Origin: a bacterium
GTDB taxonomy: Bacteria > B130-G9
DNA length: 64,000 nt
Direction: 5' to 3'
Assembly: GCA_035527515.1 (NCBI GenBank)
Contig: DATLAJ010000057.1
Coordinates: forward strand, 858-64,857
Shown here: positions 2,097-22,000 of the stretch, piece after piece
Layout of the letters: each line of letters begins with the position of its first letter
Position numbering within the stretch: the stretch's first letter is position 1
Notes under the pieces: generated by a model
What the model saw: the letters and a program-made list of their open reading frames with translations, nothing else
Told to the model about the DNA's origin: nothing
Database searches by the model: none
Position numbers and translations under genes: made by a program

Positions 2097-2213
2097 CTCT
2101 TTGCACAGCGGCGGCCGTGACATCAACAGGTGTGGCGAGGGTTGACTTCGCGATGACCGGCGCCTGAGGTTGACGGTTCAACGATTAGCTTATCACAATG
2201 GAGGAATGAGCCG

Positions 2214-5474: not shown

Positions 5475-5544
5475 ATCGCCCTTCGGTGTTTAGGTGCTCA
5501 AGTCCCATCTCTGGTGCTTGCGAAGATAAGAAGGAGCTGACGCT

Positions 5545-6747
5545 ATGAAACAAGAAAGCCCGTTCACACCGGGTAGCCCGGTGCCCTATGAGTTCTTCGT
5601 TGGTCGGCAAAAGGAGATTGAAGAGATCCTCACCTCTGTCAGGCGGGCTGCATCCGGGAGGCAGCAGAACGTTTTCTTGGTCGGCGAAAGAGGGATAGGT
5701 AAGAGCTCGCTTGCCCACTACGTGAGAGACCTGGCTGTCAAACAGTACAACTTCCTGACCGTTCACGTTCTCTTGGGCGGAGTAACTACTCTAGAAGAAC
5801 TTGTCCGGAGGGTGTTCGAGCGAATCGCTAATGAAGCTCATGCTCGACGCTGGTTCGAGAAGATTAGCGATGTATTCGGGGGCCGCATACAACAAGTGGG
5901 GTTTTTTGCCGTTTCCCTAGGTTTCAATGCACCCGAGAGTGATCTATCTCACCTGGTTAGAGATTTTCCGGAGGCTATCAACAAAATCAACGAGAAGATA
6001 AAAGATAAAATAAAGGGCATTCTTGTCGTTCTGGACGACATAAACGGGATTTGCAAGAAGGACGATTTCGCAAATTGGTACAAAAGCTGTGTGGACCACA
6101 TAGCGCTCCATTATAGGGGTTTCCCCGTGCTCATCATGCCGGTCGCGATACCGGAGATCAGACTCAGGCTAGGGGAACAACAGCCTTCGCTTATGAGAGT
6201 TTTCAAGGTGGTGGAGATAGAAGGACTCTCTGATGATGAGGTGAGAGCCTTTTTAACGAGAGCATTTGAGAGTGTCGGCGTCAAGGCATCCAGCGAAGTG
6301 ATTGGGGTGATGGTCTCCTATTCAGGTGGGCTACCGATTGTCATGCAGGAGATCGGCGACGCCGTATTCACGGCGAACAAGGATGATCTCATAGACGAAG
6401 ACGACTCAATAAAGGGACTGATGACCGCCGCCGAGACAATGGGGCAGAAGTATCTCGAGCCGAGGGTCTATCAAGCAATTCGTAGCAAGCGTTATCGCTC
6501 AATCTTGCGAAAACTGGGGAGCCTGCGTCCCTTGGCCCATTTCAAGAAAGCAGAGATTCAAAGTAAGCTGAATGTAGATGAGAAGAAGGTTCTCCATAAC
6601 TTTCTGAGAAGGATGAGAGAATTAGGCGTCGTTCTTCAGGATAAGGAAAGGGAACGAGGCTGGTATAAGTTCACGAACCCTCTTTATCCGCTTTACATCT
6701 CGATGGAAGGAATCCGCTACCGCGAGCGCCCCCGGAATAGGAGATAA
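5545..6747 (+). CDS. P-loop NTPase (AAA+ / archaeal-type ATPase-like) with a C-terminal winged-helix-like region.
   Basis: Walker A is LVGERGIGKSSLAHYV and Walker B-like is ILVVLDDINGI. The gene is visibly AT-richer than its neighbours, and a GGAG RBS lies upstream. Confidence 0.5.
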   Translation: MKQESPFTPGSPVPYEFFVGRQKEIEEILTSVRRAASGRQQNVFLVGERGIGKSSLAHYVRDLAVKQYNFLTVHVLLGGVTTLEELVRRVFERIANEAHARRWFEKISDVFGGRIQQVGFFAVSLGFNAPESDLSHLVRDFPEAINKINEKIKDKIKGILVVLDDINGICKKDDFANWYKSCVDHIALHYRGFPVLIMPVAIPEIRLRLGEQQPSLMRVFKVVEIEGLSDDEVRAFLTRAFESVGVKASSEVIGVMVSYSGGLPIVMQEIGDAVFTANKDDLIDEDDSIKGLMTAAETMGQKYLEPRVYQAIRSKRYRSILRKLGSLRPLAHFKKAEIQSKLNVDEKKVLHNFLRRMRELGVVLQDKERERGWYKFTNPLYPLYISMEGIRYRERPRNRR

Positions 6748-6907
6748 TAGAGCAAAATGTCCATCACAGAGACACAGAGAGCACAGAGAAGAACCTAGCA
6801 GATCATGCAGCTGGCATCATGTTCTCTGAGCCTTTTGCGTTCATTAGTGGCGGCGCTCTCTTTCCTCTCTGCGCCCCTGTGGCGCAGGCTCAGAAATTGA
6901 AGGCATC

Positions 6908-7219
6908 TTGACTGAGGCGGCGAGAACGGGGTATAACCGAGGCGTGGAAGTCAGCGACGTCAGGGTTTATCCGTTCGAGTCTAAAGAGGGAGCGAGCCAG
7001 GTTCACGCCTACGCGGATGTAACCTTTGACGGGGAGCTCTTGGTCAAGGGCTTCAAGGTGGTGATCAAGCCCAATGGGGCGCTGTTCGTGGGCTATCCCT
7101 CCGCGAGGCAGCAGGGCGGCGAGTTTGTGCCGACCGTGGCCGCGCTTTCGCCCGAGCTGAGGAGCAAGATACGCGAGGCTGTCGTGGCCAAGTACAGGGA
7201 GTATTTTCCGAAGGAGTAG
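6908..7219 (+). CDS. spoVG: SpoVG family protein.
   Basis: The sequence DVRVYPFE...HAYADVTFDGELLVKGFKVVIKPNGALFVGYPSARQQGGEFVPTVAALSPELRSKIREAVVAKY matches the conserved SpoVG core (ITLD..FVIHDIRVI.G.NGLFVAMPS.R...GEF.DI.HPI....R..I). Confidence 0.8.
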   Translation: MTEAARTGYNRGVEVSDVRVYPFESKEGASQVHAYADVTFDGELLVKGFKVVIKPNGALFVGYPSARQQGGEFVPTVAALSPELRSKIREAVVAKYREYFPKE

Positions 7220-7297
7220 GCAATGCGCTGGCGCAGGCTAACGTCGAAAACAGATTGTGGGACGAGGTTTTAAGCACGGCTTGGAGGGTGAGGTGCC

Positions 7298-7666
7298 ATG
7301 TTCGAGTTGACCGTCAGGAGCTCGTTTGCGGCGGCCCATCGATTGCGGGAATACGACGGCAAGTGCGAGAACCTGCACGGGCATAACTGGGTGGTCGAGG
7401 TGCGGGTGCGGGCAGAATCGCTGAACGACATTGGGCTTGCGATAGACTTCAAGGACCTCAAGGCTGCGACTGACGCGGTTTTGGACCGCTTGGACCACAA
7501 GCTCCTAAACGATGTTGAGCCGTTCAAAGAGATGAACCCCTCAAGCGAGAACATCGCTCGGTGGATTTTTGAGTCTCTGAAGGAGCGTTTAGGCGGCCTA
7601 GTCGTCGGCCTGCGAGAGGTCTCGGTCTGGGAGAACCCCAATTGCTGCGCTACGTATTGGGAATGA
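7298..7666 (+). CDS. queD: 6-carboxy-5,6,7,8-tetrahydropterin synthase (QueD / PTPS family).
   Basis: It carries the CENLHGHNW zinc-binding CxxxHGH signature and the FAAAHRL motif. The length of 122 aa is typical. Confidence 0.8.
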   Translation: MFELTVRSSFAAAHRLREYDGKCENLHGHNWVVEVRVRAESLNDIGLAIDFKDLKAATDAVLDRLDHKLLNDVEPFKEMNPSSENIARWIFESLKERLGGLVVGLREVSVWENPNCCATYWE

Positions 7667-7667
7667 G

Positions 7668-8777
7668 ATGATGCACGAGGGCGCCCGCGAGTTGGACGAA
7701 AGGGCGATCCAGAGCTTCTTTTTCCGCTACCCTCAGATAGTCGAGTCGTTCCTTGTGAAAAAGCACCTGCCAGTCTCGGGCCTTGAGGCCACAAGGTGCG
7801 AAGACGCGTGCGCCTCAGGTAGAGTTGACCTTGCCTTCAGACAGAGAGCGAGCAACTCGATGGTTCTATTGGAGCTGCAATTGGGCCGCGCCAACAGGGA
7901 CCACTACGACCGGCTCGCCTCGTACGTCAACGACTACTCGGAGCGCTTCTCGTTCTCGCGGGTGATCGGCGTTCACTTTGCCGAGGCGTTTCCCAAAACG
8001 CTCCCTCGTTACAGCCCTCCGCTTTACAGGGTTCGTTTTGCCCCGAGCAAAGTGGCGAGACTGGCCGAGGAGCTCCAGGCCCAGGAGGAGAGGCTCTTGG
8101 GACTGAGTTGCCCAAAGCCGCCCGTCTCTGCCTTTGCCAGACTCTCATACCTCAACGGGTTCTTCGCATTTATGAGGAAGCGCACGTTCGCCACGTTCCG
8201 CGAGGTGGTCGAAAACGTTGCGAACCTCGCCAAGAACCCTCGTCAGATACGCAATCCCGAATACCGCGCGCGGCTCTGGGTGAAGTTTGGGGAGAGTTTT
8301 GGGCTTCTGATTCGGCAAGAGGGCAGGATAGTGCTGACGGAGCTGGGGAGGGCATACGCCGCCTCGCTGGACGCCTCGTTCCCGTGGGCGCTCACGGCTC
8401 GGCAGAGGCGGATACTGATCGCCGGGCTCTCTGCCGCTCGCTGCACAAACGGCCACAAGTTTGGCATTTTCTGCATCCTGAAAGCTGCGGAGCAATCGGA
8501 GGAGAGGGCGCTCGAGACGGCTGATTCGCAGATGCAGAGCTTCGTGTCGTTCTGCCGCTCCAGTCGCCGATGGGTGAGAGTCTCGCAGCGTGCGTCGTTT
8601 GTTTGGTATGGCAATTACGCTAGGGAGTTGGGGCTTTGCCCGGACAGCGGACTTTCGGGCGCAAGGCTTCAGCTGACCGCGTTCGGGCGAGAGGTCCTTG
8701 CGCTATTCTCGAGGCAGTTTGCGGCGTTTGAGATGGAGCGGCGATTGCTTTTGAGAGGGACAGGCGGTATCCTTTGA
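7668..8777 (+). CDS. Hypothetical protein with a possible PD-(D/E)xK-like nuclease fold at its N-terminus.
   Basis: This is a 369-aa ORF in the coding frame directly upstream of the array. The N-terminal GRVDLAF...VLLELQLG pattern loosely resembles restriction-endonuclease-like motifs. I could assign no confident family. Confidence 0.3.
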   Translation: MMHEGARELDERAIQSFFFRYPQIVESFLVKKHLPVSGLEATRCEDACASGRVDLAFRQRASNSMVLLELQLGRANRDHYDRLASYVNDYSERFSFSRVIGVHFAEAFPKTLPRYSPPLYRVRFAPSKVARLAEELQAQEERLLGLSCPKPPVSAFARLSYLNGFFAFMRKRTFATFREVVENVANLAKNPRQIRNPEYRARLWVKFGESFGLLIRQEGRIVLTELGRAYAASLDASFPWALTARQRRILIAGLSAARCTNGHKFGIFCILKAAEQSEERALETADSQMQSFVSFCRSSRRWVRVSQRASFVWYGNYARELGLCPDSGLSGARLQLTAFGREVLALFSRQFAAFEMERRLLLRGTGGIL

Positions 8778-8794
8778 GTAGGATGAGGCACAAC

Positions 8795-10048
8795 ATGTGG
8801 CTCTTAATAACGACTAAGACGACGCATTACTGGTGGGCCAACTACAGCTGCGCTGACGGGAAGAATTTCATGTTGGCGCTGGGTTTGCAGCGAGTTCTGC
8901 GCGTGGACGGCACCATCGGCGAATGGGACCCCGGAACGAGTCCGGAGCATCCGGACGGGGACCGCGAGTGGAAGGAGCACAAGCTGCTTCACTGCAAGGC
9001 CACCTCGAACTTCAGGGAGTACGCGCAGGGGAACAGGGGGCATGAGCGATTTAGGATTTCAGTCTCACAAACCGCGCGGCAGATCGAGTTCAAGGTCAGA
9101 CTTGAGTCTGTTTGGCCGCAGCCGATTCCCTTCCCGGTGCCGGTGCCTTTCCCGCAGCCAGTCCCTTTGCCGGAGCCGCCGGTCATACCGGTCACGCCGG
9201 TCACCCCAGTTACGCCGGTCACACCGGTCACACCAGTCACGCCGGTCGTGGAGCCGGGTGCGGAGCGGGTACCCACGGGGGTTCTGAGGCCGACTCCGTT
9301 AAAAGGGAAGTTCAAGGTCTATCTTCGGTCAAGAGCCCTGAATAGATACAAGCCTAGGCTCCCACGAGACGGGAACAGGGACATATATATACACGGACAG
9401 CCGCTCTGGGAACGGGAGGCCGAGGCGGCCTTTGAGCAACCGCCTGAGGCAACGATCAAGCTCCGTGATGTGCCGATCGGGTGGGCAGTGCTCGAGGTGT
9501 GGGCAGAAGATGACCACGGGCATGATCTCAGCAAGAAGAAGACGATGCAGGTGTTTGTGTATCCTGAGATCTGGTGCAGGCGTGCGCTGGTTCCGGTATT
9601 TGGTCCCCATCTTGGGTATCGGACGAGGTGGGTGCTGCTGCCGCCGAGGGCGGAGCTGCCGCCGGTCACGCCGTTGCCGGAAGGTCCGCAGCCGCTGGTG
9701 GAGCCGATTGTCGAGCCGATACTCCCCGACGAGAAGGGCGTCTATCACATCCGCGCCGCCCTCTGGAAGCAGTCCGACGGCTACTTCGTTGTCGGTAATC
9801 CTGAAGACCGCTACGACCCCAGCAAGATCAAGGACTACAAAGTCCAATCCGACTTCAAAGTCGATGAGCAGAGGTTGACCCCGGAAGACCAACCACTTAT
9901 ATCTTGCGGGCCCTGGCAGACGGGTACAGAGGACTCGCGTTGCGCTCTTCCGGAACACGAAAGCGAACGAATAGACGTCATTGTTCTGGAGCCTGCCGAG
10001 GTAAAAGCGCTCACTGACGAGGTGCTGCCCATTCAGAAGCTGAAATAA
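8795..10048 (+). CDS. Array gene A1, full length. It has a conserved N-terminal domain, a Pro-rich (PFPVPVPF / (PVT)6) linker, and a conserved C-terminal module with a Cys-bounded variable loop.
   Basis: ATG at 8795 is where homology with copy A2 begins (caacatgtggctcttaataacg). The stop is 4 nt before the RBS of B1. The C-terminal 170 aa are shared with the downstream cassettes A3', A4' and A5'. Confidence 0.65.
   Translation: MWLLITTKTTHYWWANYSCADGKNFMLALGLQRVLRVDGTIGEWDPGTSPEHPDGDREWKEHKLLHCKATSNFREYAQGNRGHERFRISVSQTARQIEFKVRLESVWPQPIPFPVPVPFPQPVPLPEPPVIPVTPVTPVTPVTPVTPVTPVVEPGAERVPTGVLRPTPLKGKFKVYLRSRALNRYKPRLPRDGNRDIYIHGQPLWEREAEAAFEQPPEATIKLRDVPIGWAVLEVWAEDDHGHDLSKKKTMQVFVYPEIWCRRALVPVFGPHLGYRTRWVLLPPRAELPPVTPLPEGPQPLVEPIVEPILPDEKGVYHIRAALWKQSDGYFVVGNPEDRYDPSKIKDYKVQSDFKVDEQRLTPEDQPLISCGPWQTGTEDSRCALPEHESERIDVIVLEPAEVKALTDEVLPIQKLK
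9178..9249 (+). repeat. In-frame 9-bp tandem repeat (ccggtcacg)n, about 7 units, encoding (PVT)n in A1.
   Basis: The repeat is read directly from the sequence and is absent from A2. Confidence 0.8.
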
Positions 10049-10058
10049 GGAGGTGGAA

Positions 10059-11441
10059 ATGACTTGGCTGCGACTGGCGATGGTCGTTCTGTTGTCCGCG
10101 GTATTTGCGTTGACGTCTTGCGCCGTAGGGCAAGCGGCTGATTATCCCTGGGTCTATTACTTCGAGAGGCCGGACTTCCCGCAGATACACTGTGCCTTCG
10201 CGGATACGGACGGGAGCGTGGTTGTCTCTACGGGAGACTGGCTTGACACTGGGTATGATTGGGTGACCGGGGATATCGTGTACTACTACCGCTCAGCGGG
10301 ACTGTATCGGATCATTTGCGGGACTGTTGAACCTATTGAGTGCCCTGCGAATACCTTTGTTCTCGACGCGGCCGTCGATTCAGAAGGCACGACTTGGCTG
10401 CTTATTGCGCATGGGCGTAATGGATATGTCGAGACCGGCAGTTTGGCCGGTCCGACTTGCGCAGACACGCTCGGGTCCGCTGTCGGTTATCGGAATTTCG
10501 GACTTTACCTCGAGAACTACAGGTTTGCGCGCCTCGAAGGGGCTACAGTGATTGAGGATAAGCAGATAACGGAGGCAGTGCCGACGACCCCTATCACAAT
10601 GTGTTGCGACCCGTGGGGGAGGGTGTATGTTTTCAGTTGGCGGTGGTCGGACAATAGGGATATTGAGGAGAGAAGGAGCTTTGTTTCTTGGTGGTCGGGC
10701 GGCAATCCGGATGACTTACACGTCTCCGAAATCTCGAACATCCTCCATGGCGCAAACATGGATTACTATGGGGCTCGTTATCCCGCCTTCGGGCCGGACG
10801 GTCTGGCCTACTTCGTTGTGGGGAACGCGTGGGACTTCGCAGCCTCCACAGAATACGCGGTCCTATGCCTTGACCCTAAAACTCAGTCTTGGGAGGTCTA
10901 CGACGAACAGGTCTGCAGCTTGCTAGGCTGCGCAATACGCTACTTCTGCGTGGATTCAATGAACGTCAAGTGGTTCGGGACAGAAGACGGGCTGGTTCGG
11001 TTTGATGGCCAGAGCTGGTCTCGGTACACAACGGGGAACACTGGGCTTCCTCACAATCTAGTGCGGCAAATTCAATACGATCAGGCCGAGGGAGTGTATT
11101 ATGTTGTCACGCAGGCCGACCCACAGTATCGGACAGCCTTCAGCGTTCTCTCCCCCGGAGGCCGACTTGTTGGGGGTCCTTTGTCGTCCCCGCGGGAAGG
11201 GCTCCCTTGGTACCTACCCCAGATTTACAGGGATGTGAGGGGAACGTGGTGGCTGCTGTTGCCTCCCAACTACAGGGCGACAACAACACCATACGATGTG
11301 TATGCGTACGACGGCCGGGGCGTGTTTCGTTGGGACAGCAGGGTCTCGTTCGATAGGCCAGACGTCCACATCGGATTCATCGGGAGCGACGCAGAGGGAC
11401 GCGACTTCTGTGTGGGGCCTACATGCGTGATGATCTGGTAG
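10059..11441 (+). CDS. Array gene B1. It is a beta-propeller lipoprotein (Reg_prop-like repeats) ending in CVMIW.
   Basis: An aaggagg RBS lies 6 nt upstream of ATG. The lipobox reads ALTSC. Motifs DYPWVYYF, NVKWFGTEDGLVRFDGQSW..TGNTGLPHN.VRQIQYD resemble two-component-regulator propeller repeats. The C-terminus is FCVGPTCVMIW. Confidence 0.65.
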   Translation: MTWLRLAMVVLLSAVFALTSCAVGQAADYPWVYYFERPDFPQIHCAFADTDGSVVVSTGDWLDTGYDWVTGDIVYYYRSAGLYRIICGTVEPIECPANTFVLDAAVDSEGTTWLLIAHGRNGYVETGSLAGPTCADTLGSAVGYRNFGLYLENYRFARLEGATVIEDKQITEAVPTTPITMCCDPWGRVYVFSWRWSDNRDIEERRSFVSWWSGGNPDDLHVSEISNILHGANMDYYGARYPAFGPDGLAYFVVGNAWDFAASTEYAVLCLDPKTQSWEVYDEQVCSLLGCAIRYFCVDSMNVKWFGTEDGLVRFDGQSWSRYTTGNTGLPHNLVRQIQYDQAEGVYYVVTQADPQYRTAFSVLSPGGRLVGGPLSSPREGLPWYLPQIYRDVRGTWWLLLPPNYRATTTPYDVYAYDGRGVFRWDSRVSFDRPDVHIGFIGSDAEGRDFCVGPTCVMIW

Positions 11442-11731
11442 GAGGATTGCTGGCCTTGGCTGAGAAGATTGACGTGAGTCGCGTGGTGACCGCGATCGTG
11501 TCGCGGATTCCGGAGTATCTTAGGACGTGCGAGGTTTGCCTTCGCACGCAGGACGACGTCACGGCTCAGGAGTCCACGCTGCTCTATGGGTCGAAGTTCT
11601 GGGCCGTGATGAATGACACCGACCGCGCTGGCAACATAACTGGGAAGCAGCGGCTGTTCCTGGAGATCGGCACGCCTCTTCAGTATTTCCTTGCGCACGA
11701 TAACGAGAGCGGCCAGCTTCAGAAGTTCAAC

Positions 11732-13129
11732 ATGTGGCTCTTAATAACGACTAAGACGACGCATTACTGGTGGGCCAACTACAGCTGCGCTGACGGGAAG
11801 AATTTCATGTTGGCGATGGGTTTTCAGCGAGTTCTGCGCGTGGACGGCACCATCGGCGAATGGGACCCCGGAACGAGTCCGGAGCATCCGGACGGGGACC
11901 GCGAGTGGAAGGAGCACAAGCTGCTTCACTGCAAGGCCACCTCGGACTTCAGGGAGTATGCACGGGGGAACAGGGGGCATGAGCGATTCAGGATTTCAGT
12001 CTCACAAACGGCGAGGGAGATCGAGTTCAAGGTCAGACTTGAGTCTATTTGGCCGCAGCCGATCCCCTTCCCGGTGCCAGTGCCTTTCCCGCAGCCGGTC
12101 CCTTTCCCGCAGCCGGTCCCTTTCCCGCAGCCGGTCCCTTTCCCGCAGCCGGTCCCTTTCCCACAGCCGGTCCCTTTGCCGCAGCCGGTCCCTTTCCCAC
12201 AGCCGGTCCCTTTCCCACAGCCGGTCCCTTTGCCGCAGCCGACCCCTTTGCTGGAGCCGACCCCTTTGCTGGAGCCGCCGGTCACGCCGGTCGTGGAGCC
12301 GGGTGGGGAGCGGGTACCCACGGGGGTCCTGAGGCCGACTCCGTTAAAGGGGAAGTTCAAGGTCTATCTTCGGTCAAGAGCCCTGAATAGATACAAGCCT
12401 GGACTCTCCCCGGACGGGAATAGGGACATATATAGACATGGACAGCCGCTCTGGGAGCGGGAGGCGGAGGCCCCCTTTGAGCAACCGCCTGAGGCAACGA
12501 TCAAGCTCCGTGATGTGCCGGTTGGTTGGGCAGTGCTCGAGGTGTGGGCGGAGGATGACCACGGGCATGATCTCAGCAAGAAGAAGACGATGCAGGTGTT
12601 TGTGTATCCTGAGATCTGGTGCAGGCGTGCGCTGGTTCCGGTACTTGGTCCCCATCTTGGGTATCGGACGAGGTGGTTTTTGCTGCCGCCGAGGGCGGAG
12701 CTGCCGCCCGTGACGCCGCTGCCGGAAGGTCCGCAGCCGCTTTTGGAGCCGATTGTGCAGCCGATACTCCCCGACGAGAAGGGCGGCTATCACATCCGCG
12801 CCGCCCTCTGGAAGCAGTCCGACGGCTACTTCGTTGTCGGTCCTGGGGGCTCCCGCTACGACCCCGCAACAATCACCGACTACAACGTCCAATCCGAATT
12901 CAGCGTCGATGCGCAAGAAGTGAGAGACTCGGAGGGCAATTTCTTGGGCTATTGCGGGCCGAACAATGAGGACCCAGTGACCGGCCAGCCGTCAGATAGG
13001 TGTGCAAACACTCTCCCGCAACACGAGAGCGAGCGAGTAGATGTGATCCAGCTCAAGCCCCTGGAAGTGAAAAGCCCCTTTCCAACGATCGTGTCCGATG
13101 AAAAGCTGATACAAGGAGGGAAGAAATGA
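11732..13129 (+). CDS. Array gene A2, full length. Its Pro-rich linker is expanded to ~12 PQPVPF repeats.
   Basis: ATG at 11732 is where homology with A1 begins. The reading frame is open upstream to 11423, but that stretch has no similarity to A1. An 18-bp in-frame tandem repeat runs 12085-12280. The stop TGA overlaps the ATG of B2. Confidence 0.6.
   Translation: MWLLITTKTTHYWWANYSCADGKNFMLAMGFQRVLRVDGTIGEWDPGTSPEHPDGDREWKEHKLLHCKATSDFREYARGNRGHERFRISVSQTAREIEFKVRLESIWPQPIPFPVPVPFPQPVPFPQPVPFPQPVPFPQPVPFPQPVPLPQPVPFPQPVPFPQPVPLPQPTPLLEPTPLLEPPVTPVVEPGGERVPTGVLRPTPLKGKFKVYLRSRALNRYKPGLSPDGNRDIYRHGQPLWEREAEAPFEQPPEATIKLRDVPVGWAVLEVWAEDDHGHDLSKKKTMQVFVYPEIWCRRALVPVLGPHLGYRTRWFLLPPRAELPPVTPLPEGPQPLLEPIVQPILPDEKGGYHIRAALWKQSDGYFVVGPGGSRYDPATITDYNVQSEFSVDAQEVRDSEGNFLGYCGPNNEDPVTGQPSDRCANTLPQHESERVDVIQLKPLEVKSPFPTIVSDEKLIQGGKK
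12085..12280 (+). repeat. In-frame 18-bp tandem repeat (ccgcagccggtccctttc)n, about 9 copies plus 2 variant units, encoding (PQPVPF)n.
   Basis: The repeat is read directly from the sequence. A1 has only ~2 units at the equivalent place. Confidence 0.85.
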
Positions 13130-14457
13130 AAAAACGGTCGCTGGTCATGCTGATTGCGCTGTGCGCGGTGATCGGTTCGCCGCCTTTTGGGCTGTCCCAG
13201 CAAGTAGATTACCCCTGGGTGCATTATTTCGACCGTCAGATAGGTTGCGTCTATGCCGACGCGGAATGGAACGTGCTCGTGTCCACCGGGGACTGGAACT
13301 ACACCACCGGCGACGGTACTGGGGCCATCACGTATTGGTATTTGTCCGACGGAGTGTTCAAGATTTGGGAGGGCGAGATTGACAAGATCGAGTTCCCCGC
13401 CGGCACCTTGGTCTTGGGTTTTGCGACCGATTCGGGGGGAACTACATGGGCGCTCTTCGGAGAAGGTCAGAACCACACGCAACACGCGGAGGATCTGCCC
13501 TGGAAGTGTCAGGCGACGGTCTTGGACTCCGTTTCCCGATCTCCGCTCATTGCCAATCCCAGGTTAGCACGCATCCAGGGAACAGGCATTGTCGTGGATA
13601 GTGAGCTGACCGCTTCGATCCCGGGGAAGCCGGTTGCCATCGTTTCGGACGTTTGGGGCACAGTCTTTGTGATCAGTTACCAGGTCAGTTACCGGGACGT
13701 TGACTCGGGTGGTGCGAGGTACTTCGTTTCTTGGTGGCCTGGGGCTGAGCCGGGCTCGCTCCGTATTCAAGAGGTCCCCCATGTTTTTGACTACGTCATC
13801 ACTTCGCGTCGACCGTCTTTTGGACCAGACGGCCTAATGTACCTGCTCGCGAGCAACACGGAGGGGATCTACTACGCTCGGTCTCCCTCTGGGGTGCTGG
13901 CGTTGGACCCCCAGGATGAGGAATGGTGTGTCTATTATGGAGGCGATAGGGCGATCTATTGCGTTTATGTGGATCAGTTTAACGTGAAGTGGTTCGGGAC
14001 TCAGGACGGCCTCTTCCGGTTGGATGCCGGAAACTGGGCCTCCTGGACGACCGCGAACAGCGGACTGCCCTATAACGGCGTGCGACAGATAACCTATGAC
14101 GAGATCGACAACGTGTATTACGTGGTCTCACAGTATTGCGACAGCGCAGTTGGAGACTGCTACGGAGCTTTCGCGGTGCTTTCCGGTGATGGGCAACGTG
14201 TCGGGCCACCGCTGAACCTCCCCGACTGCACCGATCTGTGGATACCGAAGGCGCACCGATCCGGAGCCACTTGGTACTTGATGCCTTATGTCATCTACGA
14301 CGTGATCTACTCTTATGATCACAGAAACGTACGAGCTTGGCACCTCCGGGATTGGGTCAGCGTTGGCGCCGACACGTTCGACTTATCCATCGGCCCGGTC
14401 GGGGACCGGCGCACCTTTCTTGCCCTGCACCTGTGCAGCTGCGTTATGATCTGGTAA
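13126..14457 (+). CDS. Array gene B2. It is a beta-propeller secreted protein (Reg_prop-like) ending in CVMIW.
   Basis: It starts with the signal peptide MKKRSLVMLIALCAVIG. The DYPWVHYF, NVKWFGTQDGLFRLD and LPYNGVRQITYDEIDNVYYVVS motifs are conserved with B1, B3 and B4. The C-terminus is LHLCSCVMIW. Confidence 0.65.
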   Translation: MKKRSLVMLIALCAVIGSPPFGLSQQVDYPWVHYFDRQIGCVYADAEWNVLVSTGDWNYTTGDGTGAITYWYLSDGVFKIWEGEIDKIEFPAGTLVLGFATDSGGTTWALFGEGQNHTQHAEDLPWKCQATVLDSVSRSPLIANPRLARIQGTGIVVDSELTASIPGKPVAIVSDVWGTVFVISYQVSYRDVDSGGARYFVSWWPGAEPGSLRIQEVPHVFDYVITSRRPSFGPDGLMYLLASNTEGIYYARSPSGVLALDPQDEEWCVYYGGDRAIYCVYVDQFNVKWFGTQDGLFRLDAGNWASWTTANSGLPYNGVRQITYDEIDNVYYVVSQYCDSAVGDCYGAFAVLSGDGQRVGPPLNLPDCTDLWIPKAHRSGATWYLMPYVIYDVIYSYDHRNVRAWHLRDWVSVGADTFDLSIGPVGDRRTFLALHLCSCVMIW

Positions 14458-14460
14458 CCG

Positions 14461-15015
14461 ATGAGCATCACGCAGGTGTTTGTGTATCCGGAGATACGAT
14501 GTGCAAAAAAGCTGGTATTCGAGCGTGATCCGCTTGGACTGGGATTTATCAGGATGAGGTGGAAGTTGCTGCCGCCGACAGAGCTGGTGCCGCCGGTGAC
14601 GCCGCTGCCGGAGGGTCCGCAGCCGGAGGTGGGACCGATTGTGCAGCCGATACTCCCCGACGAGAAGGGCGGCTATCACATCCGCGCCGCGCTCTGGAAG
14701 CAGTCCGACGGCTACTTCGTTGTCGGTCCTGGCGGCTCCCGCTACGACCCGGAAACCATCACCGGCTACAACGTCCAATCCGACTTCAGCGTCGATGAGC
14801 AAAAACTCGGCCGAATTGAGGATTCGGACAAGATCTGGCGGATGCTGTACTGCGGGCCAAACAACATGGATCAGAGATTTCACCCTCCGGAGCTTTCCAC
14901 CGACTGCGTCAACGCCATTCCTATATATGAAAGCGAGCGGATAGACGTTATTACATTGAAGCTTGAAGTAAAACCGCTCATTGACGAGGGCCTGCCCGTT
15001 AAGAAGCCGAAATAA
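14461..15015 (+). CDS. Array cassette A3'. It is a 5'-truncated copy of gene A containing the C-terminal module only (184 aa).
   Basis: ATG lies 4 nt after the B2 stop. It begins MSITQVFVYPEI, homologous to the internal KTMQVFVYPEIW of A1 and A2. It has its own variant of the CGP...C loop, and the gene-A N-domain and Pro linker are absent. Confidence 0.55.
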   Translation: MSITQVFVYPEIRCAKKLVFERDPLGLGFIRMRWKLLPPTELVPPVTPLPEGPQPEVGPIVQPILPDEKGGYHIRAALWKQSDGYFVVGPGGSRYDPETITGYNVQSDFSVDEQKLGRIEDSDKIWRMLYCGPNNMDQRFHPPELSTDCVNAIPIYESERIDVITLKLEVKPLIDEGLPVKKPK

Positions 15016-15041
15016 GGAGGTCGAAGACGACTAGGCTGGAA

Positions 15042-16421
15042 ATGGCCATTCTGGTTCTGCTGTCCGCGGTATTTGCGTTGACATCTTGCACTGTAGCGCA
15101 AGCAGGTGATTACCCCTGGGTGCATTACTTCGATACTCCCAGCTGCGCGGATCATCCTTCGATCCACTTCGCGTTCCCGGATGGCGAGGGCAATGTCATC
15201 GTGTCAACGGGTGACTGGGTCCCCGATTACTGGCCTAATGAGAAATACTATGACTACCGCCCGGGAGCTTTATACCGAGTGAATGAGGGGGTCAAGCAGA
15301 CAATCGACGCACCCGAGAACACGTATGTGCTTGACGCTGCCGTGGACGGTCAAGGCAGGACCTGGATTATATCTGCCGAGGCGAGCAGTTACCACGTGTA
15401 TTACCGGAACGGCCTGTGCGTTGAGGATAAGGGGTACCCTCTTCCCCAGAGTTTCGGCTATGGGCGATACCGATTCCCGGAGTCTCCCCTTGCCGAGGCC
15501 TACGGCGGTCTTGACAAGCCAGCCTTGGGAACGCTCCGGGCTGGGCGCTTTGTCCGACTTCCTGAAGTGACCGAGGCGATTCCCGGGACACCACGTGGGA
15601 TTTGCGTTGACGCTCAGGGTCACGTCTTCTTGATGACCTCGGAATGGGATCCTTGGGAGTTCACCGCATACTTCGTCTCGTGGTGGGGAGCCGAAGGGCC
15701 TGAATCACTTCGAACTCTCGACCTGTGGCAGATCATTCCGAACTCCTGGCTTCGAGATTATCCGCAGTTTGCTCCGGATGGCGTCGCATATCTTCTCATC
15801 GTGTATAATGCGGGCGGTCCGGGGGCTGGTTACGACTACGCCCTTCTCCGCCTCGATCCTAAGACCGGCGAGTATTGTGTTTACCGGAATACCGATTATG
15901 CGTATCTTGACTCCGAAGTTCGATGCTTCTACATAGACCCAATGGGCATCATCTGGCTCGGCACCGAAGATGGCCTTGTTCGTTTCGATGGGCAGACGTT
16001 GAGTCGTTGGACGACTGAAAACAGCGGCCTTCCCTATAATGCCGTCAGGCAAATCGTGTACGATGAGATCGATGACGTCTATTATGTGATCTCAGAAAAG
16101 GATATCGGTTGGGACACCTCTATGCTATTCAGCATGCTGTCACCGGTGGGCGACGCGATAGGTGCCCCTTTTATCCTACCTACGGTCGCAAACCGACTCT
16201 TTCAATTCTCCAAGGTGTTTCGTGACGGCAGAGGCGTGTTCTGGCTCTGTCCCTATGAGGCGAGCAGGGCTTACTCCTATGACCATGAACGAGTCATGCA
16301 GTGGTACGCAGCCGACTGGATGGAGCTCGTGAGCAACGTCCACTACGTCGGCTCGACTGCTTCAGGCCGGACATTCTGCGTAGCGGGAGGATACGGCGCC
16401 TCGTGCGTGATGATCTGGTAG
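15042..16421 (+). CDS. Array gene B3. It is a beta-propeller lipoprotein ending in CVMIW.
   Basis: It shares the signal-peptide motif AILVLLSAVFALTSC with B4. The ATG of B4 reads ACG here, so the start shifts to 15042. Reg_prop-like motifs are present and the C-terminus is GASCVMIW. Confidence 0.6.
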   Translation: MAILVLLSAVFALTSCTVAQAGDYPWVHYFDTPSCADHPSIHFAFPDGEGNVIVSTGDWVPDYWPNEKYYDYRPGALYRVNEGVKQTIDAPENTYVLDAAVDGQGRTWIISAEASSYHVYYRNGLCVEDKGYPLPQSFGYGRYRFPESPLAEAYGGLDKPALGTLRAGRFVRLPEVTEAIPGTPRGICVDAQGHVFLMTSEWDPWEFTAYFVSWWGAEGPESLRTLDLWQIIPNSWLRDYPQFAPDGVAYLLIVYNAGGPGAGYDYALLRLDPKTGEYCVYRNTDYAYLDSEVRCFYIDPMGIIWLGTEDGLVRFDGQTLSRWTTENSGLPYNAVRQIVYDEIDDVYYVISEKDIGWDTSMLFSMLSPVGDAIGAPFILPTVANRLFQFSKVFRDGRGVFWLCPYEASRAYSYDHERVMQWYAADWMELVSNVHYVGSTASGRTFCVAGGYGASCVMIW

Positions 16422-16435
16422 CGGAGAAGAAGAGG

Positions 16436-16963
16436 ATGCAGGTGCTTGTGTACCCGCAGATTAGGTGCAGGCGTGCGCTAGTTCCGGTATTTGGTCCTCA
16501 TCTTGGGTGGCGCACGAGGTGGGTTCTGCTGCCGCCGAGAGAGAAGGTGCCGCCCGTGACGCCGCTGCCGGAGGGTCCGCATCCGGTGGTGGGGCCGATT
16601 GTGCACCCGACACCCCCGGACGAGGAGGGCGTCACCACAATCGAGGCCGCGCTCTGGAAGCAGTCCGACGGCTACTTCAAGGGCGATAGATACGACCCCG
16701 CCGGCATCACTGGCTACTGGTACCAGAGGTTTCACTTCAGCGTCGATGAGGAATGGCTGAATGCGGATGCACACAGAGACCGTGGTGATCCCTTGATCGC
16801 GTGCGGGCCAAATGACGGCGAACCGGGGGGGGAAGGCCTGTGCGGCCTTCCGGAGCATGAGAGCGAGCGGATAGACGTTATTACCCTCAAGCGCGCCCCG
16901 ATAATAGCCCTCACTGACGAGGCGCAGCCCGTTAAGAAGCTGAAAAAAGGCGGTCGAAGATGA
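16436..16963 (+). CDS. Array cassette A4'. It is a 5'-truncated gene A C-terminal module (175 aa).
   Basis: ATG at 16436 lies 15 nt after the B3 stop. It begins MQVLVYPQIRCRRALVPVFGPHLGWRTRW and carries a variant CGPNDGEPGGEGLC loop. Its stop overlaps the ATG of B4. Confidence 0.55.
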   Translation: MQVLVYPQIRCRRALVPVFGPHLGWRTRWVLLPPREKVPPVTPLPEGPHPVVGPIVHPTPPDEEGVTTIEAALWKQSDGYFKGDRYDPAGITGYWYQRFHFSVDEEWLNADAHRDRGDPLIACGPNDGEPGGEGLCGLPEHESERIDVITLKRAPIIALTDEAQPVKKLKKGGRR

Positions 16964-18327
16964 CTAGGCTGGAAATGGCCATTCTGGTTCTGCTGTCCGC
17001 GGTATTTGCGTTGACATCTTGCACTGTAGCGCAAGCAGGTGATTACCCCTGGGTGCATTACTTCAAGCCGCCTGATATGCGGCAAGTCCACTGCGCGTTT
17101 GCTGACGCCGAGGGGAACGTGATCGCTGCTACTGGTGACTGGAATTACAGCACATACAACTGGGGCACCGGGGATACCACCTATTGGTATCTGTCCGATG
17201 GGATATTCCAGATTCGCGAGGGAGACATAGAGGCCGTGCAGTGCCCGGCGTCCACATTCGTCCTGGACTGCGCGACAGATTCTGCCGGAAGGACGTGGGT
17301 GTTGTTCGCCGAAGGTCATGATTATAGGCAACACGTGTGGGATCCCTGGCGGTCTGCTGCGCTGAGAGGTCCTTGTGCGGCATCCGACGTGGGCTATAGG
17401 CACTTTCGCTGGCCGACCGGTATGTGGTCGTATCTAACCGACTATAGGCTGGCTACAATCGAGGAAGGCGGCTTGCGAGAGCAGCGTGAGCTATTGGACA
17501 GAGTGCCGGCCGAACCGGTCGTAATGGCAGCCGACCCTCAGGGCCGGATATACGTCATGAGTTGCGAGGACTGTGACGACCGCATTGCTGATTTCTTCAT
17601 TTCTTGGTGGTCTGGACATGACTCCAGTTGCATACGTACAATATGTTTGTGGGATCTTATTCCAGATTCCTGGGCCGCTGACTATCCTAAGTTCGGTCCA
17701 GACGATCTTGTGTACTTCCTCATAAGGATCGCGGCCGGAGATGCGAACTCTAGGTTCGCCGTGCTCTGCCTTGATCCAGAGACTGAGGAGTATGAGATTT
17801 GGAGGGCCTCCGATTACGCATTTCTCGATTCGGAGGTCTATTGCTTCTACGTGGACCAGTTCAACGTTAAGTGGTTTGGGACCGACGATGGCTTGGTTCG
17901 GTTTGACGGCGAGACCTGGATGCGCTTCGCGTCGGAAAACAGCCCACTGCCTTACGATCGGATTAAACAGATCCAATATGATGAGATCGACTATGTCTAT
18001 TACATCGTCTCGGCAGCAGAGGATTGGAGAGAACATCCAGACGACTACGTGGCGCTCAGTGTATTCTCCCCAACGGGGCGGGCGATATATGAGCCATCGT
18101 ATATGCCCGGGGGACCGTTGCTGCGGCGCGGATCAGGCAACATATGGTATCTCATGCCGGGCTGGGATGATGATCTAGTTTACGTCTATGATCACGTGAG
18201 ACTCAGCGAATTCAGCTTGCGAGATTGGGTGGACGTCCCGGAATACTCCGCTTGGGATTTCGCCATATCTCCTACGACCTTAGGGCAGACATTTTTTGCT
18301 AATGACTACTGCGTAATGATCTGGTAG
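16960..18327 (+). CDS. Array gene B4. It is a beta-propeller lipoprotein ending in CVMIW.
   Basis: It starts MTRLEMAILVLLSAVFALTSC. About 110 nt of its 5' end are near-identical to B3. Reg_prop-like motifs are present and the C-terminus is ANDYCVMIW. Confidence 0.6.
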   Translation: MTRLEMAILVLLSAVFALTSCTVAQAGDYPWVHYFKPPDMRQVHCAFADAEGNVIAATGDWNYSTYNWGTGDTTYWYLSDGIFQIREGDIEAVQCPASTFVLDCATDSAGRTWVLFAEGHDYRQHVWDPWRSAALRGPCAASDVGYRHFRWPTGMWSYLTDYRLATIEEGGLREQRELLDRVPAEPVVMAADPQGRIYVMSCEDCDDRIADFFISWWSGHDSSCIRTICLWDLIPDSWAADYPKFGPDDLVYFLIRIAAGDANSRFAVLCLDPETEEYEIWRASDYAFLDSEVYCFYVDQFNVKWFGTDDGLVRFDGETWMRFASENSPLPYDRIKQIQYDEIDYVYYIVSAAEDWREHPDDYVALSVFSPTGRAIYEPSYMPGGPLLRRGSGNIWYLMPGWDDDLVYVYDHVRLSEFSLRDWVDVPEYSAWDFAISPTTLGQTFFANDYCVMIW

Positions 18328-18335
18328 CGAAGACG

Positions 18336-18650
18336 ATGCAGGTGTTTGTGTATCCTGAGATCTGGTGCAGGCGTGCGCTGGTTCCGGTATTTGGTCCCCA
18401 TCTTGGGTATCGGACGAGGTGGGTGCTGCTGCCGCCGAGAGAGAAGGTGCCGCCCGTGACGCCGCTGCCGGAGGGTCCGCATCCGGTGGTGGGGCCGATT
18501 GTGCACCCGACACCCCCGGACGAGGAGGGCGTCACCACAATCGAGGCCGCGCTTTGGAAGCAGTCCGACGGCTACTTCAAGGGCGATAGATACGACCCCG
18601 CCCTGGTTGCCCGGCATCCTACGGATCAGCACATTGTTCGGCTCAATTGA
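18336..18650 (+). pseudogene. Array cassette A5'. It is a terminal, doubly truncated remnant of the gene A C-terminal module.
   Basis: The first ~105 nt are 100% identical to A1 at 9541-9650. Homology to A4' ends abruptly at 18603 after GDRYDPA, and the frame then runs into unrelated sequence and stops at 18650. The Cys loop and the ESERIDVI end are missing. Confidence 0.5.
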
Positions 18651-19053
18651 CACGTTTACCACAGAACTATGCCATACGTTAATCAATGAGGCCAAAGAGA
18701 GCTCCTGCGGTAGTTGGCGATGCGTAATCCTTGACCTGGAGGCCGAGGTGATGTAAATACACCATGTGTTTTTCGGGCAGCGATTGAGGCAAACTTCTAC
18801 GGATTGGTCACGAACAGGAACGAGCGTTCAAAGCGGGAATCTCTCACTTCTTTTCGCCCCGTTTCCGCTGGCGCAAACTCCTCCCAAGAAAAGACTTGAA
18901 CGCTGTGAGAAATAAGGTATGTTAGAACAGGCTGTATCGACAGCAGATTGATAAGTTTACATATTCTGAGGCTATATAGATGGGCGAACCGCCCTGAGTC
19001 GCGGAGCTGCGACTGATGGGTGGAGTGTCTCGTTATTTTATGGAGGACCGCAA

Positions 19054-22000
19054 ATGTCATTGAGATGGGTCACGATCGTATGTTCGGTGTTCGTCTTTGT
19101 CATCGTTGGTTTGACCGTGTGCCGTGCTGGCGAATGGTCGGACTATGAGATCACACAGGATACAACTTGGGACCCGAGCGAGAACCCAATTGTCCTGATG
19201 CGTGATCTTACTATCCACAAGGTGAATCCTGATGATCCTAGCGACAGAGTTAAGCTGACGATCAATCCTGGGGTTGTAGTAAAGCTTGCCTCACACGTTG
19301 ACATATTTGTTGAGGGGCTTGTGGTCGCGGAGGAGGCGCTTTTTACCTCGATAAATGACGACAGCACGCCTGACGGAGCGTGGGAGGACAGTTCAGGAAC
19401 GCCACAGATAGGTGATTGGAACTCTGTCCACATCTACAACTACAATGCCATCTTCTCGGGCTGCACGTTTCGCTACGGCAAGTCAATAGAGATCGATGAT
19501 TGCTCGCCCACTTTTTACGGCAACCTGATCGAGCAATTCAGTCGATATGGTCTGTATATTGTTGCCCAGGACACGCTTGTCAGCCCGGTCATCGAGTGCA
19601 ACAAGATATTTGACATCGGCGAGCCTTACACCGATGACAATCCTGAGAACGGGAAGTTCGACCCCGGCCAGGAGGAGTATCAAGACCTCGACATGAACGA
19701 CCAGTATGACGCTGGCATCGGCATCTATTGCTACACACCACCTTTCTATTTTGGCCCGTGCGTTCCGCTGATTCGGTTCAACCAGATTGTTATGAGCACC
19801 GATCGCAGCGTCGCTCGGGGCAGCTTGCCAATAGTGTTTGAGAACACTCTGCCGATCATGCTCGACGTCGGGGGCTCACCGGAGAATCCGGTCCCTGATG
19901 GTAACCTGATTCGGCAAAGGGCGGATGATGACCGCTTCGTCTCGGCCATCGGCATAAAGGGCTATGTCAAGCCTGGCGAGCTGGACGATGATACCGGCGC
20001 TTACAAATACGTGGACTACTTCCTCCCGCTCGTTGACGACAGAGCGGTGGCCTCGGACCAGGTCTCGCCGACAAACCAACATCTCCCCTACATAGTTCTG
20101 GAAGACCTCGTCATCGCCGATGGCTGCGACCTATCCGTGCCGCCCAATTGCGTTGTCAAGTTCAGCGCGGACACGAGCGTCGAGATTCTGGGGACGATCG
20201 AGACCTCCAACCTGTCCGCATCCCGCAGCTATTTCACATCGCTTCATAACGACGTTTACGGGCTGAGGGTGCCTGGCAGCAACAGCCACCCCGCTCCTGG
20301 CGACTGGTATCAGTTCAGGATTTGCTGCGAGGATTGCCTGATCCAGAACAGCAACTTCAGCTACGGGACGTTCGTCAAGATCGATCAGTGCTGTCCGACA
20401 ATCATCAACAACACGGTCTCCAACTTCTATCTTTATGGTCTTTATGTATATGCCGAGTCGCACGCAGCAAAGCCGGAAATATCGCGAAACGTGATACAGG
20501 ACTGCGGCCACGTGGTCGATGCGGCAAGCGGCATTTACGAGGGCGGTGGCATCTGCCTCGAGACGGGGCGCGATTATTTGGGCCCGTGCGAGCCGACGCT
20601 TCAGGGCAACAGGCTGCTTAGTAATCATGGCTATCCATTGACGCTTCTTGGGACGTGCGACCCTGTTTACATCAACAACACCTTGATGGGCAACTCCTAC
20701 CGAGCCGTCGCGATAGGCGGGACTATACGCGGCCGGGGAGCGACGTGGGATGATGTAACCGGCTATCACTATCCTTACGTGGTCATAGACCCCGTGGTGG
20801 TGGCGGGAGGCTACAGGGCCGCCAACGGGCTTTCTACTGCCATCATCTCGAGCGACACGCTTGATGGCATCCTGGACACCCTCGTTGACGAGACCGCCGA
20901 CTGGAAGGCGAACGTCCTGACTGGCTCGATGCTGACTCCCAACACCGACCGGCCCGAACAGTTCGAGATAGTGTCCAACACCAGAACCTCGATTGTGGTT
21001 GGCTCCGACGTGTCCGGCATCGCCCAAGGCGGAGACCCCTACGAGTTCGTCGTGAAGGATACGGTCGTGGAAGTCCCTCTTGGAACGATAGTCAAGTTCG
21101 CCAAGGGGATGAGCATTTATGTGAAGGGTCAGCTCGAGCTCAACGGCACGACCCGCGACAGAGTCTATTTCACCTCTTTCAATGACGATTCCGCCGGCGG
21201 CTCCGTTCTTCTGTCGGGCTCAACGCCGATGCCTCAGCCGGGCGATTGGGAATACTTCAAGGTCGAGAACGACAACAACAAGATCGAGGAATGCATCTTC
21301 AAATACGGCACTTCGATCTACATAGATAGCTGCTCGCCGTTGCTCCAGCACAACGCCATCGCGATGTTCTCACGGGCGGGTATCCACTGCTACGCGCACA
21401 GCGCGAAGGCCTCGCCCTCCATCCTCAACAATGCGATCATGTGCAATCGCAATGGCGTTCGTTGTGAGACGGACACTGGGTTTACCGATCCCAATGGCGC
21501 GATGCCGATGATCCACTCCAATGACATCGTCAGCAACGAGGAGTATGGGGTCGTGAACCTCCAAGAGGGGGCAGAGATCGACGCCGTGCTCAACTGGTGG
21601 GGCGCCGTCGATGGCCCATCGGGAGATGCACCCGGAAGCGGAGACGGCATATATGACGTGTCCCTCTACAAACCATTCCAGGGCGAGCCCAACTTCGAGG
21701 CCGATTCGGCCCCTCCGGTGTTCTCGGATGTGTTCCCTGCGCCGTATTCGGTCGATGTGCAGACGACCACTATCATCATGTTGACGGTTACGGACGTCGG
21801 CAAGGGCATTGACACTAATTCTGTCTCGATAAAGGTCGATCATGGCGACGGTGAGGGCTTCGTGTCCGTGATGAAGGACGGCGAAGACCTCCACTACAAC
21901 GGGGGCTATGTGAGCCGCGAGAACGTCGCGAACGGCTACCGTTACAGCTATGTTCCCGGACGGTCATTCGCCGCAAACAGGCAGGTGTGCGTCAAGATGC

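Follow-up and report, generated by a model that had tools for sequence, protein, structure and literature searches.

A probable coding minisatellite in the proline-rich linker of orphan protein A, encoded in a tandem two-gene cassette array of a Coatesbacteria-like bacterium

The DNA analyzed here (the window) is a stretch of 64,000 nucleotides (nt) from contig DATLAJ010000057.1 of assembly GCA_035527515.1, a bacterial chromosome whose GatB is 80% identical to that of Candidatus Coatesbacteria, the nearest named relative. At 8795-18650 on the + strand the window carries a row of tandem two-gene cassettes, in the order A1-B1, A2-B2, A3'-B3, A4'-B4, and an A5' remnant. The subject of this study is the repetitive, proline-rich linker within A1 and A2, above all the repeat array of A2, which an earlier note had read as an in-frame, length-variable spacer. 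The two genes and their repeats are listed below with the evidence for each (ORF, open reading frame; TRF, Tandem Repeats Finder; GC, guanine-cytosine content; dN and dS, nonsynonymous and synonymous divergence).

8795..10048, + strand: gene A1, 417 amino acids (aa) from MWLLITTK, with N block, 47-aa proline linker, middle block, and C block (ORFs, alignment)
9116..9178, + strand: A1 remnant of 18-bp units (PFPVPV, PFPQPV, PLPEP) (TRF, codon register)
9179..9247, + strand: A1 9-bp array, VIP-(VTP)6 (TRF, third-position variation, assemblies)
11423..13129, + strand: gene A2, longest ORF 568 aa (ORFs, codon-position GC, ortholog dN/dS)
12053..12277, + strand: A2 18-bp coding minisatellite, (PFPQPV/PLPQPV)n then PLPQPT, PLLEPT, PLLEPP, about 12 units (TRF, codon register, shuffles)
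12083..12162, + strand: 80-nt periodic tract of 4 identical CCTTTCCCGCAGCCGGTC units, the sole site where other assemblies depart from the window (unit strings)

When run over the 64-kb window, TRF returned an 18-bp array at 12053-12267 of A2 (11.9 copies, 89% matches, score 304, consensus CCGCAGCCGGTCCCTTTC), overlapped by a second row at 12226-12277 (CCCTTTGCTGGAGCCGAC, 2.9 copies); visible head-to-tail 18-bp units span 12047-12298. No other array in the window scored above 99, and the best scores in 20 dinucleotide-preserving shuffles of the window were 36 to 54. Tandem units of high identity thus exceed chance expectation, and the units of 18, 9, and 36 bp described here are multiples of 3, lie in the frame of A, and belong to a gene under selection, as expected of a coding, in-frame variable-number tandem repeat. 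The A2 linker begins with PFPVPV, four PFPQPV units of identical DNA, PFPQPV, PLPQPV, and two further PFPQPV units, and continues with PLPQPT, PLLEPT, PLLEPP, VTP, and VVE, a total of 83 aa with 47% proline at alternate positions. Only the four identical units are perfect at the DNA level, forming the 80-nt periodic tract at 12083-12162; the remaining units carry one to three differing sites each. The in-frame 18-bp and 9-bp repeats proposed for A2 and A1 in the earlier note are therefore confirmed by TRF, codon register, and shuffles, although its description of the A2 array needs amendment, as the repeat begins ∼30 nt before the start given there and has only four perfect units. The A2 repeat is also open in several reading frames of the two strands (ORFs 11958-12332, 12049-12390, and 11926-12360).

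At the equivalent position of A1, TRF found an 18-bp array (9116-9178; 3.5 copies, 73% matches) followed by the anticipated 9-bp array (9179-9247; 7.7 copies, 80% matches, consensus CCGGTCACA). The A1 linker reads PFPVPV, PFPQPV, PLPEP, VIP, six VTP units, and VVE, and comprises 47 aa, 43% proline, again at alternate positions. The two linkers do differ markedly in length (47 versus 83 aa), and they do so by expansion of different units: A2 has expanded the 18-bp unit and retains one VTP, while A1 has expanded the 9-bp unit and retains one PFPQPV. Among the six VTP units of A1, all variable columns fall at third codon positions, and the array segment has the same sequence in five of five assemblies. 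The VTP array is therefore kept as protein and degenerate as DNA and should resist slippage; its stability, together with the synonymous-only differences between its units, fits slippage that depends on DNA identity between units.

The start of A1 is ATG 8795, preceded by GAGG. Its syntenic ortholog P0001 (contig L001) also begins MWLLITTK and lies directly after a homologue of the 369-aa gene found at 7668-8777 in the window, which rules out that A1 is a 5'-truncated gene. A2 consists of a cassette leader, a pre-N segment, the N block, the linker, a middle block, and a C block; candidate starts are ATG 11423, TTG 11456, and ATG 11609, and codon-position GC is coding-like at 11447-11731. An ortholog of A2 is known from a second, sister species, hereafter species 2, on a contig of a metagenome-assembled genome (L018) and on two metagenome contigs (L023 and L024), and begins MNDTD. 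Comparison of A2 with the ortholog on L018 gave dN/dS of 0.19 in the N block and 0.24 in the part after the linker (dS ∼0.45-0.56), indicating that A is a real gene under purifying selection. The A proteins had no Pfam or NCBIfam match at E <= 0.1, and queries with A, B, and P0010 (a large A-family protein) in PADLOC, PHROGs, and PDB sequences returned no match. No signal peptide or membrane segment was found in A (maximum 19-residue Kyte-Doolittle hydropathy 1.1-1.3 in A1 and A2), no LPXTG was seen in the A1 and A2 translations, and the C termini are charged (…IQKLK and …IQGGKK). AlphaFold2 models of A1 (7 sequences; predicted local distance difference test score, pLDDT, 36.6) and of the middle and C part of A2 (9 sequences; pLDDT 47.8) were too poor for a fold search, and a promoter and terminator scan gave no signal over chance. 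A second, small in-frame 12-bp repeat (2.6-2.8 copies) lies inside the C-terminal block of A1 and A2 (9690-9720 and 12733-12765); it encodes PLVEPIVEPIL and resembles the PxVE/PILE unit expanded in the species-2 linker.

The A family comprised 22 proteins among 1.84 billion cluster representatives in a profile search. Since a first homologue search was swamped by proline-rich low-complexity proteins, it was redone with the repeat removed, which yielded only five relatives and no further alleles. Metagenome contigs scanned for exact matches to the upstream flank yielded none, exact look-ups returned neither B1 nor the 557-aa start variant of A2, and viral contigs contained no relative of A. No paper citing the sample accessions was found. 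In P0010 (1338 aa) and P0020 (1097 aa), the A module forms the C terminus of a large protein without Pfam match, and the window lacks the large N-terminal part that these two carry. In the family alignment, the repeats lie between two conserved blocks, of which the upstream one (the N-terminal block, ∼107 aa) ends ...IEFKVRLES[IV]W and the downstream one starts around ...KGKFKVYLRSRALNR. P0001, P0002, and P0010 have a short non-repetitive segment (...LPEAHALPPLEELWKQVPKYQRVGE...) in place of the repeats, while P0020 and P0025 have an unrelated EKIDV...CEVCLRSQ element there. As these distant homologues have no repeats at this position, the proline repeats are best read as a lineage-specific filling of the most length- and sequence-tolerant site of the protein, a linker. 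To judge from the sequences, that the repeat would serve as a spacer between conserved blocks is all that can be said.

Turnover of the repeat is seen between paralogues and between species. In DNA, A1 and A2 share 95-97% identity immediately upstream of the linker and ∼92% immediately downstream, and dS between them is 0.078 upstream (8795-9115 versus 11732-12052) and 0.358 downstream (9245-10045 versus 12290-13126). This jump across the linker suggests that the N-terminal block of A1 and A2 underwent gene conversion recently and that the boundary of the event lies near the repeat. In species 2, the 18-bp unit is CCGCAGCCAGTCCCTTTG, encoding PQPVPL with L in place of the F of the window's CCGCAGCCGGTCCCTTTC; there are four identical copies (TRF, 6.8 copies, 96% matches). 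Species 2 also has an expanded 12/24/36-bp repeat (PVVEPILERIVE) encoding PVVEPVLEPVVEPILERIVEPVLEPILERIVEP, where the window has a single PVVEP. Such a pattern, with units alike within each species but not between them, is characteristic of concerted evolution through slippage or unequal exchange. Within species 2, L024 has exactly one 36-bp unit fewer than L023 and L018 and differs by 6 single-nucleotide polymorphisms (SNPs) in 4.5 kb. The L018 array contains a run of N whose flanking sequences overlap by 37 nt on L023; the run was accordingly rejected as a sign of a longer array and is uninformative.

Copy number was compared among further assemblies of the same locus, recovered by exact protein look-up. 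The Joint Genome Institute (JGI) contig L002 is identical to the window, including its A2 array. A 47.9-kb MEGAHIT contig (L006/L012; European Nucleotide Archive, ENA, ERZ27256828) aligns to window positions 1-18795 with no mismatches and one 18-nt gap, which corresponds to one perfect A2 unit fewer. L010 (ERZ27256834) has two A2 units fewer and ends inside the array. With each unit type written as a letter, the strings are aaaabcbbdef in the window and L002, aaabcbbdef in L006, and aabcb... in L010. Two contigs of ERZ27256827 (L007 and L013) break within the A2 array, one running into it and stopping there, the other beginning there. Near the end of L007 (window ∼12200-12247), unit 7 has CCG for CCA and unit 9 has CCGTTG for CCTTTG; these substitutions could be a minor allele or contig-end errors. 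Assembly artefact was rejected as the source of the repeat itself, since it was assembled independently by JGI (identically, in L002) and by ENA/MEGAHIT (L006) and a related species has a similar array. Among strains, then, the observed differences amount to one or two 18-bp units fewer and, in species 2, one 36-bp unit fewer, counts that come from assemblies alone and may reflect collapse. Expansion and contraction of the repeats by whole units is accordingly indicated between paralogues, species, and identical or near-identical assemblies, but not for the A1 array, which the assemblies share unchanged.

Taken together, the repeat is probably a genuine coding minisatellite, generated by slippage, in a linker between conserved blocks of orphan protein A. 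An ancestral short proline-rich segment, roughly PFPQPV-PLPEP-PVTP-VVEP, would have been amplified unit by unit, most plausibly by replication slippage or unequal recombination between identical DNA units, with a different unit expanded in each gene: the 18-bp PFPQPV in A2, the 9-bp VTP in A1, and PQPVPL together with the 12/36-bp PVVEPILERIVE in the sister species. Because every unit is a multiple of 3, gain or loss keeps the frame and would alter only the spacer, in 6-aa steps in A2. The A2 array, with DNA-identical units remaining, would be currently unstable, and the A1 VTP array, decayed at synonymous sites, would be stable. The product is most likely an extended, non-globular rod resembling polyproline II (PPII), with proline at about every second position, that would part the N-terminal block from the middle and C-terminal blocks. 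The PPII helix has ∼0.31 nm per residue and three residues per turn. At that rise, the predicted spacer would measure ∼15 nm in A1 and ∼26 nm in A2, with ∼1.9 nm per A2 unit. Slippage-driven length variation of the linker is likely, judging from the assemblies, and the changes in length may have adaptive value. Several points weigh against this reading. Every difference in copy number sits in a perfectly periodic stretch of ∼70-80 nt in a short-read assembly, the kind of place where units are also expected to collapse or contigs to break; the ENA and JGI assemblies may derive from the same samples; and the L018 array contributes no information, its N-run flanks overlapping on L023. Moreover, the picture of folded domains joined by a rod would rest on conservation blocks and composition only, the AlphaFold models being poor, and no signal peptide or membrane segment was found in A to indicate what the spacer would span.

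An alternative that we regard as doubtful, yet worth serious consideration, is a genuine repeat of invariant length, the unit differences between assemblies and the missing 36-bp unit being short-read artefacts and only the differences between paralogues and species being real and old. Every difference does lie inside a perfect tract (the 80-nt tract in A2 and likewise that of species 2), two contigs end inside the array at the error-prone contig ends, two odd substitutions stand near the L007 end, the L018 array contains the run of N with flanks overlapping on L023, and the JGI contig and the window agree exactly. However, at 80 nt the tract falls below the final k of the k141 assemblies and below typical read lengths (assumed), so that a spanning k-mer should resolve it; L006 passes straight through the array with the shorter allele and shows no other difference in 18.8 kb, including the paralogous stretches of A1 and A2; L023 and L024 are distinct strains (6 SNPs) separated by a clean single-unit indel; and the species-specific homogenization of units indicates turnover after the species split. 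On the strength of the tract being shorter than k = 141, of the otherwise flawless L006, and of the two distinct species-2 strains, at least some of the copy-number differences are rather likely to be real.

Two further explanations assign the array another role. In the one, which we judge decidedly unlikely, the array is a valency device, with PxPxPx units acting as docking or adhesive motifs whose copy number alters avidity and not distance, for example by offering a partner, perhaps the B beta-propeller, a PPII ligand, or by forming an amphipathic PPII surface like that of prolamin proline-rich repeats. Conservation of the unit as protein would agree with this, in that VTP units differ only synonymously and PQPVP[FL] is retained in two species, and by PPII geometry a 6-residue period would assign V and F to two faces and Q to the remaining one. 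Nonetheless, unrelated unit types (PFPQPV, VTP, and PVVEPILE) are expanded at one position in different genes, distant homologues have no proline repeat at all, and no partner is known; the three unrelated units and the repeat-free homologues argue for a role of length or composition, not of a specific binding motif. In the other, which is highly unlikely, the repeat acts as DNA, a recombination hot spot at the exchange boundary between the N- and C-terminal cassette parts of A whose coding output is tolerated. The rise in dS from 0.078 to 0.358 across the linker, suggestive of a conversion-tract boundary near the repeat, agrees with this, as does the mosaic position of EKIDV...CEVCLRSQ, which serves as the linker of P0020 and P0025 and yet forms a cassette leader in A2 and on L019, a contig of a third species; yet the synonymous-only VTP variation points to selection on the encoded peptide, the A3 to A5 cassettes and the L019 and L022 loci recombine without such a repeat, and no chimeric allele was observed. 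That A1 and A2 are untranslated pseudogenes or silent cassettes, with the repeats arising by neutral non-coding slippage, deserves almost no credence. In its favor, the repeat is stop-free in several frames on both strands, and no known domain was recognized in A by Pfam, NCBIfam, PADLOC, PHROGs, or PDB sequence searches; but dN/dS of ∼0.2 against the ortholog, coding-like codon-position GC, a frame that runs on into conserved blocks on both sides in all homologues, and indels that are all whole multiples of 3 speak against it, and a non-coding repeat or pseudogene was ruled out on dN/dS, codon-position GC, and frame continuity. A slippage-generated coding minisatellite in a linker thus remains the preferred account.

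The remaining members of the cassette array are as follows.

10053..11441, + strand: B1, cassette partner gene, ∼450 aa, with lipoprotein-type signal (LTSC), ending CVMIW (ORFs, signal)
13126..18650, + strand: rest of the array, B2, A3, B3, A4, B4, and the A5 remnant (ORFs, alignment)
14461-15015, + strand: A3, C block only (alignment)
16436-16963, + strand: A4, C block only (alignment)
18336-18650, + strand: A5 remnant, truncated, C-terminal block only (alignment)

From B2 to A5 (13126-18650), TRF found no proline-rich array, only two weak unrelated rows (14163-14188, score 36; 14586-14604, score 31). The B proteins are 443-462 aa long, carry a signal peptide, and have only weak Reg_prop/PorZ-like propeller matches; the paralogues are 34-41% identical to each other, and every one ends CVMIW (B1 at 11421-11441; ends of B2, B3, and B4 at 14457, 16421, and 18327). 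The 3' DNA was read for two B genes, TGCGTGATGATCTGGTAG in B1 and TGCGTAATGATCTGGTAG in B4. The A2 ORF opens at ATG 11423, 19 nt ahead of the B1 stop, and L019 shows the same overlap with GTG at 12083; this repeated overlap of the A2 start with the B1 end suggests translational coupling. The JGI contig L002 starts exactly at the repeated B1/A2 junction. The 5' leader of A2 (AEKIDVSRVVTAIVSRIPEYLRTCEVCLRTQ, 11456-11545) shares homology with the leader that the short A cassettes of L019 carry and with the EKIDV...CEVCLRSQ segment at the proline-repeat position of P0020 and P0025, and the in-frame 5' part of A2 also resembles the pre-N region of P0010. Given the homology of its leader to a linker-position segment, A2 looks like a recombinant mosaic, with the linker position as a putative recombination-prone spot of the family.

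A bigA-B-A'-B arrangement is carried by the L022 locus. When L022 1386-6784 is compared with A1-B1 of the window, the tail of the large A shares 72% identity with the A1 tail, and the B after it shares 69% identity with B1 and no more than 40% with any of B2, B3, and B4. Sequence comparison leaves room for the view that A-tail type and B type may be paired. Other loci depart from the pairing, as on L018, where the A is A2-type and its B most like B4 and B1. In L022, a distant locus, the second B gene has at its 3' end a perfect 41-nt direct repeat (2.1 copies; L022 8489-8573) whose unit is not a multiple of 3.

Upstream of the array (5545-8777) lie a STAND-like AAA ATPase (5545-6747; AAA_16, with weak BrxD and SngB matches), SpoVG, a PTPS-like gene, and the gene for the 369-aa protein (7668-8777), which has a weak NucS_C-like nuclease match. 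The PTPS-like and 369-aa genes adjoin the array in L019 as well, and of the two only the 369-aa gene was found in L001, L018, and L023. Very large secreted proteins of 694+, 1086, and 1846 aa, with PQQ-like beta-propeller and beta-helix matches, flank the array at 12-5474 and 19054-24594; the 1846-aa gene is a conserved downstream neighbor of the array in L018, L019, and L023.

It is conceivable, though unlikely, that the linker minisatellite is a contingency element, one of three stacked diversification layers in an undescribed two-gene A + B cassette system; the other two could be the tandem array of A-B cassettes, with its orphan C-terminal modules, and gene conversion or a mosaic structure at the linker position. 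The A-B cassette system appears confined to a Coatesbacteria-like candidate lineage. If the layered reading were true, the locus might work in the manner of an effector/partner or antigenic-variation locus, the repeat adjusting reach or valency and not being a passive spacer. The repeat is otherwise an ordinary coding minisatellite of a well-known kind, and the surrounding cassette array is the more unusual. In-frame proline-rich minisatellites that alter linker length are already well known, so that the repeat alone matters little. It is usable as a marker of strain-level micro-heterogeneity in an uncultured lineage, and it carries a warning that short-read assemblies of the locus break, or may miscount units, exactly at the A2 array. 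It also marks a site in protein A that tolerates any length or sequence and thereby delimits the conserved blocks of an orphan family. The wider A-B cassette array is the more interesting object, and the repeat gains weight only if the array is a diversification locus.

Comparison with known systems places the repeat among in-frame coding repeats and sets A apart from proteins with TonB-like, cell-wall-spanning, or stalk regions, to which the earlier note had likened its linkers; that analogy failed for A, in which no signal peptide, membrane segment, TonB_C match, or LPXTG was found. Pertactin of Bordetella is a secreted autotransporter whose repeats lie in surface loops under immune selection. 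Its alleles differ mainly by deletion or gain of whole GGxxP and PQP units (PMC3766922). The (GGxxP)n/(PQP)n repeats of pertactin and those of A are alike as in-frame, proline-rich tandem units in a coding gene and have a similar peptide flavor (PQP). Unlike pertactin, A lacks an export signal and has its repeat between conserved blocks, and its polymorphism is deduced from assemblies only.

TonB's proline-rich domain is expected to take the shape of an extended PPII rod that sets how far apart two functional ends lie (PMC5413942). TonB/TolA and A have in common an (X-Pro)n composition, the central X-Pro region of A being its linker with 43-47% proline. In contrast to TonB/TolA, A has no N-terminal transmembrane anchor (hydropathy maximum 1.1-1.3) and no TonB_C match (Pfam/NCBIfam), and it is not a homologue of TonB. 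The TonB tract is not known to be a DNA-identical unstable array. In the serine-aspartate repeat (R) region of staphylococcal ClfA/Sdr proteins, in-frame copies of an 18-bp coding unit vary in number between strains and encode a stalk whose length matters for display; these proteins, and proline-rich wall-spanning surface proteins of Gram-positive bacteria, carry signal peptides and LPXTG anchors. A2 resembles the SD-repeat region of Clf/Sdr in its in-frame 18-bp coding unit. A nevertheless falls outside the wall-anchored class, having no signal peptide, no LPXTG seen, and another residue composition.

The cassette array, as distinct from the repeat, is reminiscent of polymorphic toxin loci (contact-dependent inhibition, CDI, and Rhs). 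Unlike CDI/Rhs loci, it has no toxin, delivery, or immunity domain detectable with A and P0010 in Pfam, NCBIfam, PADLOC, PHROGs, and PDB sequences; B is a secreted, lipoprotein-like protein of ∼450 aa and not a small immunity protein, and the A tails are homologous variants and not unrelated domains. The likeness lies in the architecture only, a full-length gene, of which P0010 and P0020 are forms from elsewhere, and its partner followed by 5'-truncated cassettes each with a partner of its own, as in L022 and the window; a single pairing between an A-tail type and a B type is also conserved in different organisms.

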